Shown here piece after piece: positions 438 to 4,312 of a DNA stretch of 64,000 nucleotides. Made by a program: the position numbers and the translations under genes. Each line of letters begins with the position of its first letter. The stretch's first letter is position 1. The DNA comes from Candidatus Poribacteria bacterium (GTDB lineage: Bacteria > Poribacteria > WGA-4E > WGA-3G). Under the pieces are notes generated by a model. It was not told the origin of the DNA. It searched no databases and was given only the letters and a program-made list of their open reading frames with translations. The stretch covers positions 1,472,001 to 1,536,000 of the forward strand of contig OZ240248.1 of assembly GCA_965198235.1 (NCBI GenBank). The letters are read 5' to 3'.

Positions 438-2303
438 TCACGTAAACAGTGGAAATTCGAGTTGTTGTGGTTCTGTCTGTGTAGGCTTCGGTTGCCGGAT
501 CTGTTCTGTTTCAGTTTTAGGCACGGTGTATGTTTCCGGTTTTTGCATCGGTTTCGGATAGGAGCCTGTATCTTTTCTATATCCATACCTATATCCATCG
601 CGATGTCTGAAGCGTCTTAATTGGCTGAGGTTACCTGATTCACGTTTGTCTTTTGTATCTTTATAAAAATTATTTACACGGCATTCTTGCGGTTTCCCTG
701 GAGGGGTCTTCTCAAAGCAGTTAATTACACCTTCTACGCGCCCGCTCTTCTTTGTTAGATAGACATGGTCGCCTCTGTGAAAACCGTTAATGTGAGATGC
801 TTTGAAAATTTTCTGACGGAACCCTGGAAATTTTCCGCCTTTGGTACACCCAAAGCGATATTTGAGGTTATTCCGGCTTCCGTAGCCAAGGGCATGTATC
901 ACAAATACAGGGACTTTCGCACAGGCTTCTTGTGGTGTGTTTTCAACGGCGGCTGCATCATAATAATGTGTCTTCGGCAGCCCAGCACTGTTACGGTTGT
1001 AGGCTGTCCGTCCTCCAGAACCACAAAATACAGGGAGTTGTGTCGCCTGTAGGGTCTCTACAAGTTTCCACCGAATCGTATTCACTGCCGCCGCGTCTGA
1101 TAACGAGAATCCGCGCTTTGATTTTGATAATACCGTCTTTTTTATTTTCTTTGCAATCTCTGGATGCCGCTTTTCTAATTCTTTACCCCAAAGTCCACCC
1201 TTTTTCTGGTTACACGTGTGACATGCCATCGTGAGGTTGTCGAGCCTGTCTGAACCGCCAAGGGCTTGTGGATAAATGTGTTCTATCTCTAAACGCTGCC
1301 CACCTTTGCCACAATAAGCACATTTTCGCTTCGTTAATTCCAATAAATACTCTCTCTTTTCACGTCTATATAAGGGCCCCCGTTGATATTCAATACCGTG
1401 AATATCGGGGTTCTCTAACAGTTGCATATCAAACTTGACTTCCTCAATAGCTAGACGTTTTATCGAATAGAGATTTGTCAATCTGCGTGTCCATGTTTCT
1501 AAGTTGAATACACGAGACATAAGACTCGGTGCAATCCAGCCGTTATCAGCACGTTTTTTGTGTCCAATACGCTCACGTTTCCAACGATACTTCGTGGGTG
1601 GCGTATTCTTCAACTTTGCTTTCAGGGCACTTCGTAAGAACCCTAACGTTTTCGACATCAGGGCATCGCGTTCCGCTTTTTTATCACGCATCATGATATG
1701 GTGAATCAGCTCGTCTCTTGTAAGACGTGCGACCTCTGCGTTCGTCATCTCAGGCATGAATTCTTTACGGGTACGGGATTTGATACGAGTATAACGATAC
1801 CGCTTGTCTTTCAATTGCGCAGACGACACTCTCACAAACTTGTTCTTCGTTTTTGACGAGTCTTTCGATAGATCGGACTCGTCTTCAGCACGTCTGTACC
1901 TCCATCCTTCAGTTTCCGTGAGAACAGGCACTTTACGTCCACGATTCGCCCAGCGCGCTGGCCGGTGTCGTAAATTTCGGGTTCTCCGCCCACGACGAAA
2001 GCCCGCTCTCTCTTTCAAAGCCTTCTTTATCTGGATCCCCCGATGATGAAGTTCTGCCTTCATGACAATGTTGTTCTCATTGTCTAAAATCGCAATCCCT
2101 GATGTTCGGGAACCTGGGTCCCAATTTAGAGAATAAACACCCGTTACGATCTCGTCCTCTGGTATCACGCGCTTGAGGATAATTGCAAACGGATATTTGC
2201 ACCATACTGCCGCCTCCCCATCACGAAGCAAACGACGGGCAACTGCGGGATGGCAGGGTTCCAAGACTTTCTTTTCAGAATCTATAACCGCAACTTTAAA
2301 CAT
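438..2303 (-). CDS. iscB: IscB RNA-guided endonuclease (RRXRR/PLMP-like N-terminus, split RuvC, HNH), large variant with an insertion after the bridge helix
   Basis: N-terminal VLEPCHPAVARRLL (PLMP-like); RuvC-I WDPGSRTSGIAI (D62); Arg-rich bridge helix RAGFRRGRRTRNLRHRPARWANR; GWIAPSL; RuvC-II IEEVKFD (E287); HNH CAYCG..EHIYPQALGGSDRLDNLTMACHTCNQKKG (H342); RuvC-III KTHYYDA (H446/D449). Confidence 0.95.
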   Translation of the reverse strand: MFKVAVIDSEKKVLEPCHPAVARRLLRDGEAAVWCKYPFAIILKRVIPEDEIVTGVYSLNWDPGSRTSGIAILDNENNIVMKAELHHRGIQIKKALKERAGFRRGRRTRNLRHRPARWANRGRKVPVLTETEGWRYRRAEDESDLSKDSSKTKNKFVRVSSAQLKDKRYRYTRIKSRTRKEFMPEMTNAEVARLTRDELIHHIMMRDKKAERDALMSKTLGFLRSALKAKLKNTPPTKYRWKRERIGHKKRADNGWIAPSLMSRVFNLETWTRRLTNLYSIKRLAIEEVKFDMQLLENPDIHGIEYQRGPLYRREKREYLLELTKRKCAYCGKGGQRLEIEHIYPQALGGSDRLDNLTMACHTCNQKKGGLWGKELEKRHPEIAKKIKKTVLSKSKRGFSLSDAAAVNTIRWKLVETLQATQLPVFCGSGGRTAYNRNSAGLPKTHYYDAAAVENTPQEACAKVPVFVIHALGYGSRNNLKYRFGCTKGGKFPGFRQKIFKASHINGFHRGDHVYLTKKSGRVEGVINCFEKTPPGKPQECRVNNFYKDTKDKRESGNLSQLRRFRHRDGYRYGYRKDTGSYPKPMQKPETYTVPKTETEQIRQPKPTQTEPQQLEFPLFT

Positions 2304-2328
2304 AAATGTTCTCTCAATAAGGTATAAT

Positions 2329-2542
2329 TCTTCTACTAAAAGCAGAAGATATTGACCTTTAGAGGTAAAGTGAGCCTCGTCAATGTTATCCGTGCTTTAT
2401 TCAGGGTTGACAGCGTATTGTAAAGCCATTTACATTGCACCCGACAGAGCTTTAGGCTGGCGTCATGCACCCAAAGGTGTCTATATCACCGGTAACGTAG
2501 TTGAAAACTTAGACTAGATACCACTTGAGCATGGAGTTGCAA
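2329..2542 (-). ncRNA. omegaRNA/HEARO-like scaffold with a 5' anti-repeat (tracrRNA-like)
   Basis: Minus strand reads ...TAGTCTAAG..AACTACGTTA..GACACCTTTGGGTGC..GCCAGCCTAAAGCTCTGTC..AACATTGACGAGGCTCACTTTACC, the motif order typical of HEARO/omegaRNA upstream of iscB. Visible pairings: GACA/TGTC, CTTTGGG/CCTAAAG, pseudoknot AGTCT/AGGCT, and 3' hairpins. Exact ends uncertain. Confidence 0.85.
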
Positions 2543-2636
2543 ATTTGCCGTCAATCTCCCGGTGAATTCACACTATCGGAGGTCGACAGCAAAATTCTTA
2601 AGAGGATTGCCGGTGACACCTACATTCTTGCATAGC

Positions 2637-3210
2637 GTTGCAACGCAAACATGCCCAAGCGATAACTGCATCTCGATGTGATAGTCGCGCCCGACATCAG
2701 AGTTGCAACGCAAACATGCCCAAGCGATAACTCACAACGATGTAGATCGCTTTCTTCGGCTGATAGGGTTCCAACGCAAACATGCCCAAGCGATAACTGA
2801 CGATATGATTAGACAAACTGGCAATGTAATCACGTTCCAACGCAAACATGCCCAAGCGATAACTCTTTCTCTGGATCGTATTGGGAATCGAGGTACGTAG
2901 GTTGCAGTTCAAACAGGCCCATAGGTGTCAATTTTAGAAAATATATCCGTCTTTTATGGGACTTGCGTGCTATATCTTGTCTGAATCACGGATGACACGG
3001 ATTTCGCAGATTTCGCAGATTTTGGAGTTCTCTGTCCGTGCGAGGTCTTTAGTAAGTGTTGGGTTTCACTGAGTATGTCTGTGATGGCAAGTATATGAAC
3101 GGTGGCTTAGTTTTCTATGAGTTGAAAGCATTTGTGGTTATCCGTTCAACCCAACCTACGATACTAAATTGACACCTATGGTTGCAACGCAAACATGCCC
3201 AAGCGATAAC
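2637..3210 (-). CRISPR. CRISPR array; repeat (minus strand) GTTATCGCTTGGGCATGTTTGCGTTG(C/G)AAC, 5 full repeats plus 1 degenerate partial repeat, 4 unique spacers
   Basis: 30-bp repeats at 2637-2666, 2702-2731, 2768-2797, 2834-2863 and 3181-3210; degenerate partial repeat at 2901-2921; unique spacers of 35, 36, 36 and 37 bp. Orientation inferred from G-U-compatible pairing with the anti-repeat. Confidence 0.93.
2919..3181. mobile_element. MITE/REP-composite non-autonomous element inserted in the CRISPR array
   Basis: Terminal inverted repeats CCATAGGTGTCAATTT (2919-2934) and AAATTGACACCTATGG (3166-3181); internal GTAGGTTGGGTTGAACGG...GTGAAACCCAACACT is shared with the copy at ~63673-63806. 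Confidence 0.75.
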
Positions 3211-3290
3211 GAGCGTAGGGGGCAAGGCTGGTTCTATAATGGACACTACACATCACCGTATTTGTGAAAGCAGTTGAGACCTCCCAAATC
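3211..3290 (-). promoter_or_regulatory. Putative CRISPR leader
   Basis: Non-repeat sequence between the outermost repeat and the stop of the upstream acetamidase gene, on the 5' side for minus-strand transcription; no clear consensus promoter. Confidence 0.4.
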
Positions 3291-3294
3291 CAAG

Positions 3295-4224
3295 CTACCC
3301 CCAAACGCCGATGTCCTGTAATATCGACTTTTTGATTTTGCAGACCATCGTATACGCCGGATCGAAGACGTTCCCCATATCGTATTCTACCGCTTGCCCT
3401 AAAAGGATGTGTGCGGCACGTTTTTCTAAACCGAGTTCACCCAACCACCGAAGAAGTTCCGTCGTGGCGTGTTGCACCGCTTGATCCAACGGACGTGCAT
3501 TTCCCGCTGCTAAAATATAATCGCTGTTTTCCGCACGGGGCCAGTTGATGCTTTTTCCTTTAAGCACTTCAACCGTAAACTGCACATCGAAAGAGATTTC
3601 GATCCCAGTCCCGACGATTTCGCCATCACCCTGCACGGCGTGTCCATCACCGAGATGAAAGAGCCCACCGGGGACGAAAACCGGGAAGTAGACGGTAACA
3701 CCCTCCTTGAAACCGCGATAATCCATGTTTCCGCCGTGTGTAGAGGAAGTCGCCGTTGAAATCGCTTGTCCTCGCGGCGGTGCCACCCCGAAACATCCCA
3801 CCATCGGTTCAAGCGGCAGCGTGAGTTTACCCAACTGCGTCACTGAGGTCATCAATGTCGCCGTCCATTTTTCCACATCGACATGCCACTCTGCGAGACC
3901 ACGACCACCTTCCGGCATCTCGGACGCTACATAGTCGGGATCGAGGACATTGGGAGCAACGGTCATAGCCGTCCGTCCGATCGAGCGATTCGGAACTATC
4001 CGATCGAAATGAACTGCTAACGTATCCCCGGGTTCTGCCGATTCAATATAAAAAGGACCTGTTTGTGGGTTGCCTCTTTCAGTTACCTGTGTATCGTTGG
4101 CATCGTAGCCCGCGTTATCCACGGTTGTTGTGAAAACGGTGTCGCCGCTTTCAATATGGAGCACCGGTTCGTGCGCGCCAATTGCTGTATAATAGACCGT
4201 CGGTTCAAAGTGATGTGTCGCCAT
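3295..4224 (-). CDS. Acetamidase/formamidase family protein
   Basis: NPQTGPFYIESAEPGDTL, HGGNMD and LGDGHAVQGDGEI motifs. Confidence 0.9.
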   Translation of the reverse strand: MATHHFEPTVYYTAIGAHEPVLHIESGDTVFTTTVDNAGYDANDTQVTERGNPQTGPFYIESAEPGDTLAVHFDRIVPNRSIGRTAMTVAPNVLDPDYVASEMPEGGRGLAEWHVDVEKWTATLMTSVTQLGKLTLPLEPMVGCFGVAPPRGQAISTATSSTHGGNMDYRGFKEGVTVYFPVFVPGGLFHLGDGHAVQGDGEIVGTGIEISFDVQFTVEVLKGKSINWPRAENSDYILAAGNARPLDQAVQHATTELLRWLGELGLEKRAAHILLGQAVEYDMGNVFDPAYTMVCKIKKSILQDIGVWG

Positions 4225-4312
4225 TTTTTAATTTTTCCTTGCGGTTCGTTCAGGTGGATTGGATAAATAACGTTACCCGCCGTATATCCGCCTGCGCCGT
4301 TGTTGCAGGCTA
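4225..4312 (-). repeat. Dispersed repeat family A (...GATATACGG...GAACCGCAAGGAAAATTAAAAA), directly before the acetamidase ATG
   Basis: Homologous to units at 15448-15718, 17379-17789, 26394-26490, 28669-28760 and 29500-29570. Confidence 0.7.

Follow-up and report, generated by a model that had tools for sequence, protein, structure and literature searches.

A CRISPR-associated IscB locus in a Candidatus Poribacteria genome, with a repeat that corresponds to the 5' strand of the first omegaRNA stem

Is a compact RuvC-HNH nuclease that lies beside a clustered regularly interspaced short palindromic repeat (CRISPR) array an IscB or a Cas9, and how is its array related to its omegaRNA? This question is raised by a locus in a 64,000-nt stretch of DNA, hereafter the window (assembly GCA_965198235.1, contig OZ240248.1, positions 1,472,001-1,536,000), from the 5.17-Mb genome of a sponge symbiont belonging to Candidatus Poribacteria. 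The protein encoded there is, as judged from its sequence and its predicted fold, an IscB and not a Cas9, and the CRISPR repeat pairs with an anti-repeat inside the omegaRNA scaffold. We consider it probable that the locus represents a CRISPR-associated IscB (“CasIscB”) fixed in the chromosome of a Candidatus Poribacteria-type genome; this judgement covers the identity of the locus and the mechanism, role and route of spacer uptake proposed below, all taken together.

Layout of the Locus

All elements of the locus are on the minus strand, in the order that a first-pass annotation, made from the letters of the window, had given: a conserved flank of 84 nt, the CRISPR array, a linker of 49 nt, the HEARO/omegaRNA scaffold and the 621-aa iscB. 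The features are listed below by window position; other loci used for comparison carry L numbers.

3211..3294, minus strand: conserved flank before the first repeat (candidate array promoter or leader), near-invariant in the window and in L024, L025 and L026
3181..3210, minus strand: distal CRISPR repeat, a perfect copy, at the same anchored place in L024, L025 and L026
2918..3181, no strand assigned: dispersed element resembling a miniature inverted-repeat transposable element (MITE), inside the distal array, with 16-bp inverted ends at 2918-2933 and 3166-3181
2899..2917 (approximate), minus strand: truncated or degenerate repeat remnant beside the inserted element, read by eye, with no full 30-nt match at up to 9 mismatches
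2637..2898, minus strand: four regular units, with repeats at 2834-2863, 2768-2797, 2702-2731 and 2637-2666
2864-2898, 2798-2833, 2732-2767 and 2667-2701, minus strand: regular spacers, from the reading of the array
2588..2636, minus strand: conserved 49-nt linker from the last repeat to the scaffold, which aligns in 11 loci and lies in the loop closed by the repeat:anti-repeat stem
2365..2587, minus strand: omegaRNA scaffold (HEARO, RF02033), an Rfam match over the full model length
2516..2543, minus strand: anti-repeat, at the position of the 3' strand of the first omegaRNA stem, from RNAduplex, covariation and the cis fold
438..2303, minus strand: iscB, 621 aa, from the open reading frame, domain models, alignment and predicted fold

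The 30-nt repeat (GTTATCGCTTGGGCATGTTTGCGTTGCAAC, minus strand) occurs in five copies with 0-1 mismatch, and these are all of its copies in the genome; a control search with the reversed pattern returned 0. The regular spacers are 35-36 nt long and all differ from each other. The locus therefore contains what defines a CRISPR array, namely at least three near-identical direct repeats with unique spacers of even length. The first-pass annotation had also placed a leader before the array. A conserved 84-nt flank is indeed present at that position, but the distal part of the array behind it is interrupted by the degenerate repeat and the 264-nt element. In a promoter scan, 6 promoter-like sites were detected where chance alone would give 5.4; none could be named as a promoter, and none in the 84-nt flank stood above chance.

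The Repeat and the Anti-Repeat Are Two Halves of One OmegaRNA Stem

The predicted HEARO scaffold was recovered by the Rfam search as a match to the full RF02033 model at 2587-2365 (minus strand, 68.4 bits, E = 8e-13), 61 nt upstream of the ATG. The scores in relatives were 76 and 83.3 bits, and the poorly matched part of the model was its first stem. The anti-repeat lies within this match, at the position that the model gives to the 3' strand of its first stem, and it begins at offset 94 in four of the five loci first tested. In RNAduplex, the repeat and the anti-repeat paired at -30.4 kcal/mol, compared with -14.6 kcal/mol for the reverse-complement control. When the last unit was folded together with the scaffold, the repeat:anti-repeat stem was present in both the minimum free energy (MFE) structure and the centroid structure, closing a loop that holds the linker and two hairpins.

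We then compared 23 repeat:anti-repeat pairs across 11 loci, which form the covariation set. In total, 89.6% of 250 cells paired, compared with 29-40% when the partner was slid by 1-3 columns. Compensatory changes on both sides were found in 8 of the 23 pairs, and 0 of 500 shuffles reached any of the five pairing measures. The G-U wobble pairs are compatible with the iscB-sense strand only. Pairing and covariation across loci thus place both sequences in the first stem of the omegaRNA: the anti-repeat forms the 3' strand, and the strand that has been multiplied into the CRISPR repeats is the 5' one.

The last repeat and the anti-repeat are separated by 93 nt, composed of the conserved 49-nt linker and two hairpins. 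Consequently, the earlier description of an anti-repeat fused to the scaffold holds in that the anti-repeat is inside the HEARO match, but it is not directly fused to the last repeat. The possibility that the 49 nt after the last repeat are a further spacer was rejected, because this segment is conserved among the relatives.

The Protein Is an IscB

The protein consists of a PLMP-like N-terminus, RuvC-I, a bridge helix (RRXRR), an insertion of ∼130 aa at the REC site (approximately residues 124-253), RuvC-II, HNH, RuvC-III, a C-terminal domain resembling those that interact with the target-adjacent motif (TAM), and a disordered tail. Pfam matches on the 621-aa protein were RRXRR (8e-50) and HNH (3.5e-11). 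Positions 1-119 of the RRXRR model align to residues 4-125, showing that the N-terminal domain is present; we take this to be the domain named PLMP in IscB. In an alignment of 40 sequences, D62, E287, H342, N365, H446 and D449 were invariant, within a split RuvC with an inserted HNH; these include all of the residues that the first-pass annotation had named (D62, E287, H446, D449 and H342). The guided_IscB equivalog model of NCBIfam (NF040563) scored 334.2 bits against a cut-off of 175, and 335.8 bits in the genome search, which included the neighboring in-frame stretches.

An identity as Cas9 or Cas9d was rejected. The CRISPR_Cas9d model scored 45.2 bits against a cut-off of 375 and TIGR01865 cas_Csn1 scored 30 against 100, these models matching the HNH region only, and the fold is nearer to IscB. 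The AlphaFold2 model has a mean predicted local distance difference test (pLDDT) score of 71. The top Foldseek folds for this model were IscB and IsrB (E = 1e-17 to 1e-14), and in VIA-align IscB and IsrB reached Z scores of 18-21, compared with ∼9-10 for Cas9 chains. The structural alignments begin at model residue 1-2 for IscB and IsrB but at residue 50-57 for Cas9, so the Cas9 chains are without the N-terminal domain. The model scores, the fold and the covariation thus bear out the combination of an IscB, a CRISPR array and a tracr-like anti-repeat that had been claimed for this locus, tracr referring to the trans-activating CRISPR RNA (tracrRNA).

The insertion at the REC site measures 132 aa in the alignment. 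In the model it is predicted to contain beta strands and a confident helical module (residues 186-232, pLDDT ∼91-95). Its position is the site that Kannan et al. (PMC13180657) define for REC-like insertions. The full HEARO scaffold is retained alongside this insertion of ∼130 aa.

Arrays in Related Loci

To place the window among its relatives, we used 14 related loci, taken from records titled Candidatus Poribacteria. In the window, as in 10 of the 14 loci, the distance from the end of the array to the ATG is 301-544 nt. Of the other four, two (L031 and L033) have a solo repeat, one is truncated by the contig end, and one has no repeat at that place. The linkage of array and iscB thus extends to homologous loci in related genomes. 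The solo repeat of L031 and L033 is exactly at the position of the array, and the likeness between copies begins at the first base of the repeat; judged from their sequences, these two loci are ordinary single-guide omegaRNAs. Solo-repeat and array forms coexist in the clade, even in one genome. A single clade therefore shows the same omegaRNA stem with one 5' strand and with that strand multiplied into arrays. Since the repeat is half of an omegaRNA stem, living relatives can be compared directly for how a class 2 array arises from a guide-RNA gene.

The arrays of the clade have 4 to 28 repeats. In the regular units of 11 clade arrays, the spacers are 34-40 nt long and nearly all unique, the gaps being longer at degenerate repeats and inserted elements. 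Spacer sharing was limited to two within-array duplicates and one common 18-nt fragment, which involves the two most distal spacers of L024 and L025; no spacer of the window recurs in relatives whose protein is 92-93% identical. In the four arrays with 17-28 repeats (L027, L028, L030 and L037), the repeats are all identical, except for the most distal one in two of them, and degenerate repeats are found at the iscB-distal end in 6 of the 11 arrays. The 84 nt upstream of the first repeat are near-invariant in four syntenic loci while the spacers differ. Based on these sequence comparisons, we infer a fast turnover of spacers, with new units entering next to the scaffold.

The same data bear on the explanation that the locus is a single-guide system with a fossil array, in which only the scaffold-adjacent spacer works in cis and the upstream units are unused leftovers. 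The cis fold of the last unit on the anti-repeat, predicted as both MFE and centroid, agrees with it, as do the existence of the solo-repeat members L031 and L033, one of which is listed with a TAM when the scaffold begins at that repeat, and the decay of repeats at the distal end. Furthermore, the paper on DelIscB, a CRISPR-associated IscB, states that two-RNA processing is still to be shown (PMC12660989). However, the arrays of 17-28 repeats keep their repeats identical, with the exception just mentioned, which is hard to explain without use or a very fast turnover, and the spacer length is tightly kept at 34-40 nt. We regard the fossil-array explanation as unlikely. The question of two-RNA processing raised in the DelIscB paper could well be addressed with the long, perfectly conserved arrays of this clade.

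Outside the poribacterial set, no array was found at 28 other genome loci, in a scan that would miss solo repeats or arrays of two units. Arrays were found at 2 of 20 viral loci, and array-like repeats, which are candidates from the repeat scan, at 7 of 78 metagenome loci. None of the 78 IscB loci in the metagenome contig collection exceeded 49% identity, and the clade is unrepresented there.

Several further observations were made in the relatives. In the genome G005, the iscB-linked array of L014/L018, which has a 37-nt repeat, adjoins a second array with an unrelated repeat of ∼37 nt in at least 8 copies. In L031, a match to the group II intron catalytic domain (RF00029, 70 bits) is located at 267-343, 3.7 kb upstream of the solo-repeat iscB. 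Further open reading frames of the RRXRR family (IscB/IsrB-like) occur at 8981-9859 in L026 and at 5691-6716 in L035, a few kb from the array-linked iscB.

Phylogenetic Position of the Clade

A tree was built from 49 IscBs, leaving out the fragments L029 and L051 and three viral proteins identical to others; DelIscB was not placed in it. In the Shimodaira-Hasegawa-like approximate likelihood ratio test (SH-aLRT), the poribacterial clade and a viral-contig clade each had a support of 100, and the branch joining them had 84. Array-less lineages stand beside both clades, and the array-bearing viral L080 and L083 are found at scattered positions among relatives without arrays. The repeat:anti-repeat design recurs in L083, there with a short loop. 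In the tree, the poribacterial lineage is separate from these two other array-bearing IscBs, and this distribution fits several separate captures of arrays by IscB, as far as the compared sequences indicate. The suggestion of an independent lineage in the first-pass annotation is accordingly upheld with respect to L080 and L083. The layout of L080, from a viral contig, is unlike that of the window: one repeat type is found in arrays on both sides of a HEARO-like scaffold, one of them between the scaffold and the open reading frame, and a further array follows the gene.

The locus had also been described as a candidate intermediate between IscB and Cas9, and this did not hold. By the published account, the clade is not on the line to Cas9, and the idea of an intermediate has already been published for DelIscB (PMC12660989). 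Because the clade is off that line, the word “intermediate” can only mean a parallel case here. Such a case would be a second, independent replay of the IscB-to-Cas9 route by the poribacterial clade: the array would have formed by tandem repetition of a unit of “guide + first-stem 5' strand,” the REC-site insertion would have grown through ∼21, 75, 100 and 130 aa, spacers would enter in the scaffold-proximal position (an unusual polarity), and uptake would perhaps proceed without Cas1. We put this forward tentatively, as a possibility on which we would not yet rely.

Genomic Context

The absence of flanking tnpA, cas1 and cas2 genes that had been reported from the window alone was confirmed and extended. 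Neither tnpA nor cas1 was detected in the window, and no Cas1, Cas2, Cas4 or Y1 transposase was detected among the 78 flanking open reading frames at the 14 loci, although cas2 was not searched for genome-wide. The upstream genes for a trypsin-PDZ protease and an acetamidase are common to the window, L024, L025 and L026, and because of this shared neighborhood we consider the locus to be fixed in the chromosome.

These results can be set against the explanation that the locus is a mobile OMEGA element, whose IscB and RNA serve transposon retention or homing and whose repeats are tandem copies of its left end. It would account for the left-end-like likeness that begins exactly at the repeat in L031 and L033, for a genome with three copies, and for the presence of six Y1 transposase genes in the genome of the window. 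However, these six genes are all more than 360 kb from the locus, none of the 78 flanking open reading frames is a Y1 transposase, the same neighbors are found in four genomes, and unique spacers of even length are unlike copies of one flank. Given the lack of any Y1_Tnp within 360 kb and the synteny of the flanks across four genomes, the locus does not appear to reside in an IS200/IS605 element, and we consider a mobile OMEGA element very improbable. The lack of an IS200/IS605 context does not exclude membership of IscB, because this link is sparse for HEARO/IscB generally (Goltsman et al., PMC9755519).

Directly 3' of iscB there are genes for a type III restriction enzyme (893 aa), a type III methylase (674 aa), a RiboL-PSP HEPN protein, an AAA protein and a DUF4325 STAS-like protein. 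This defense island (L072, G000:C1:1458001-1472500) is variable, being absent or differently filled in the syntenic L024-L026, and its restriction, methylase and HEPN genes count in favor of the explanation proposed below. The only Cas1 of the genome is ∼1.26 Mb away, in the region G000:C1:2732009-2738055, and its open frame of 546 aa is longer than a plain Cas1. Cas1 was also found elsewhere in the genomes of four of five relatives. In addition, six frames of 185-413 aa that match the N-terminal half of the IscB model (L003-L008) are present at G000:C1:4648442, 2947885, 4954945, 734097, 4679193 and 1584699. They are likely to be of the IsrB type, with no HNH, and one has an in-frame TGA; Rfam detected no HEARO beside these six loci.

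Proposed Mechanism, Expression and Targets

We propose the following mechanism for the CRISPR-associated IscB. The array and scaffold would be transcribed in the iscB sense. The last spacer-repeat unit would fold back in cis on the anti-repeat, giving a natural single-guide omegaRNA, and the upstream units, once excised, would base-pair in trans with a copy of the scaffold at its anti-repeat, in the fashion of CRISPR RNA (crRNA) and tracrRNA. The IscB-RNA complex would then cut double-stranded DNA that matches the 3' part of the spacer next to a TAM. This RNA-guided, TAM-dependent cleavage is proposed for the window IscB only by analogy with PbaIscB-3 and PbaIscB-4, two tested members of the clade, and on the same basis the TAM is probably NGG. 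The role would be defense against phages or mobile DNA and not the upkeep of a transposon. Spacer uptake does not appear to be encoded at the locus; a Cas1-Cas2 module from another part of the genome would most likely provide it, with new units apparently joining the array at its scaffold-adjacent end.

The array of the window itself is small and its distal part is broken. The 264-nt element lies together with the truncated repeat between the fourth and fifth repeat copies. A second copy of the element with 83% identity is found at G000:C1:2048491-2048721, and dozens of partial copies occur in the genome; contigs in the public runs X3 and X1 skip 2942-3140, which is most of the element. In our interpretation, a dispersed MITE-like element has inserted into the older end of the array. 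Dispersed short repeat elements, composed of runs of tandem motifs of 7-9 nt, are also found at ∼145-430 and ∼4220-4300, with very high depth in public runs.

The interrupted array could mean that the locus is decaying and silent, eroded by the inserted repeat element and no longer working. The element and the truncated repeat agree with this, and four regular units remain. However, the open reading frame is intact with all of its catalytic residues, the core of the IscB is 97% identical to that of the nearest relative, the scaffold and anti-repeat are conserved, and both gene and scaffold are covered by RNA-library contigs. We regard decay as extremely improbable. The RNA-library contigs, from three metatranscriptome runs in two studies, extend over iscB and the scaffold as far as the last repeat, some of them with 0 differences. 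Their cover ends at 2665/2666, the edge of the last repeat, which we read as an assembly break at the repeat and not as an RNA end.

Several results weigh against the proposed explanation, beginning with the broken distal array just described. The HEARO match of 68.4 bits is under the Rfam gathering score of 83, and the fold of the whole scaffold was no better than that of shuffles (z = -1.59). The metatranscriptome contigs give a weak hint of expression, since DNA carry-over is possible and they give neither strand, ends nor level. With regard to targets, no protospacer was found in the genome itself, where the spacers match only the array; none was found in cultured phages, for either the window array or the array of a relative with 26 repeats; and a 24-nt stretch of the scaffold-proximal spacer, one of the four regular spacers, had no match in viral or metagenome contig collections. 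The TAM-side domain of the window protein is just 61% identical to that of PbaIscB-3, which bears on the NGG analogy. With regard to uptake, the Cas1 adjoins the only other array of the genome, which has 56 copies of a 37-nt repeat in units of 72-86 nt and is unrelated to the iscB repeat. Adaptation in trans through a shared repeat is thus not supported. The complete chromosome of one relative, which has a 9-repeat IscB array and no Cas1 match, also weighs against uptake through Cas1 in trans.

Comparison With Known Systems

CRISPR-associated IscBs were reportedly described by Altae-Tran et al. in 2021, according to the accounts in other papers. The first-pass annotation had rated the locus as a rare find of top interest, and this rating cannot be kept: such IscBs are in print (PMC12660989, PMC11610941), and members of the present clade are listed with the TAM NGG in a supplementary table of PMC13180657. 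The class is thus already published, and the window locus adds a further example. We found no paper naming both Poribacteria and IscB, and the supplements of Altae-Tran 2021 and files 7, 10 and 13 of PMC13180657 may already hold the arrays of the clade.

Kannan et al. 2025 (PMC13180657) list the nearest published entries in their Supplementary Table 1. The PbaIscB names are confined to supplementary rows and have 0 mentions in the main text. PbaIscB-3 comes from a Poribacteria contig marked “(CR),” with the TAM NGG and a scaffold starting with the repeat. Its sequence agrees with our protein P0002 over the part of the table cell shown, and P0002 is 68% (BLASTP) or 69% (alignment A1) identical to the window protein. 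PbaIscB-3 resembles the window in belonging to the same clade, in its REC-site insertion of ∼130 aa, and in the order of its scaffold, where a same-type repeat precedes the linker and the anti-repeat; it differs in its genome of origin, in the sequence of the repeat and in the spacers. PbaIscB-4 originates from the L031 contig and is listed with the TAM NGG and a scaffold starting at the repeat, whereas PbaIscB-2, which is the same protein with a scaffold beginning after the anti-repeat, has “-” in the TAM column. In practical terms, the protein is compact (621 aa) and two relatives with the short TAM NGG have been screened as editors; by this analogy, the window ortholog would add little as yet.

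DelIscB (CasIscB-1/-2, from the Delaware and Chesapeake viral metagenomes) was described with a repeat and an anti-repeat by Zhang et al. 2025 (PMC12660989), who write that, on the way from IscB to Cas9, it “may represent an intermediate” and who leave two-RNA processing unsettled. As in the window, it is CRISPR-associated and has no adaptation genes, and its non-coding RNA consists of a repeat, a long loop, an anti-repeat and a HEARO-like scaffold, the natural cis form of which is usable as a single-guide RNA. In contrast to the window protein, it has 457 aa, no REC-site insertion and the TAM NAC (PMC12660989). L080, which is DelIscB-like by eye, falls in a clade separate from that of the window (SH-aLRT 100). 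KraIscB-1 of Ktedonobacter racemifer was the first CRISPR-associated IscB to be characterized, according to a commentary (PMC11610941). Its array and non-coding region are expressed as an IscB-binding non-coding RNA, it shows RNA- and TAM-dependent cleavage of double-stranded DNA, and its TAM is ATAAA; we liken it to the window by this description, not by sequence.

Among the solved structures, TbaIscB (PDB 9K30) is the best sequence match (E = 4.6e-32) and has the IscB fold (Z = 19.7), but it has ∼25 residues at the REC site, compared with 132 in the window protein, whose clade is off the line to Cas9 by the published account noted above. Type II-D Cas9 (Cas9d) is similarly a compact RuvC-HNH effector beside an array and a tracrRNA, with a REC-site insertion, and its loci are often without adaptation genes (PMC9755519). 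In contrast, the window IscB keeps the N-terminal PLMP-type domain and the full HEARO scaffold and fails the Cas9d model. Finally, OgeuIscB and the canonical IscB-omegaRNA systems of IS200/IS605 resemble the window in the order of the domains, in the HEARO scaffold that precedes the gene and in the guide 5' of the first stem. In the canonical system, the flank determines a single guide, the first stem is short and an array is lacking, whereas the window has a stem of ∼24-28 bp, the 5' strand of which is repeated with new spacers.

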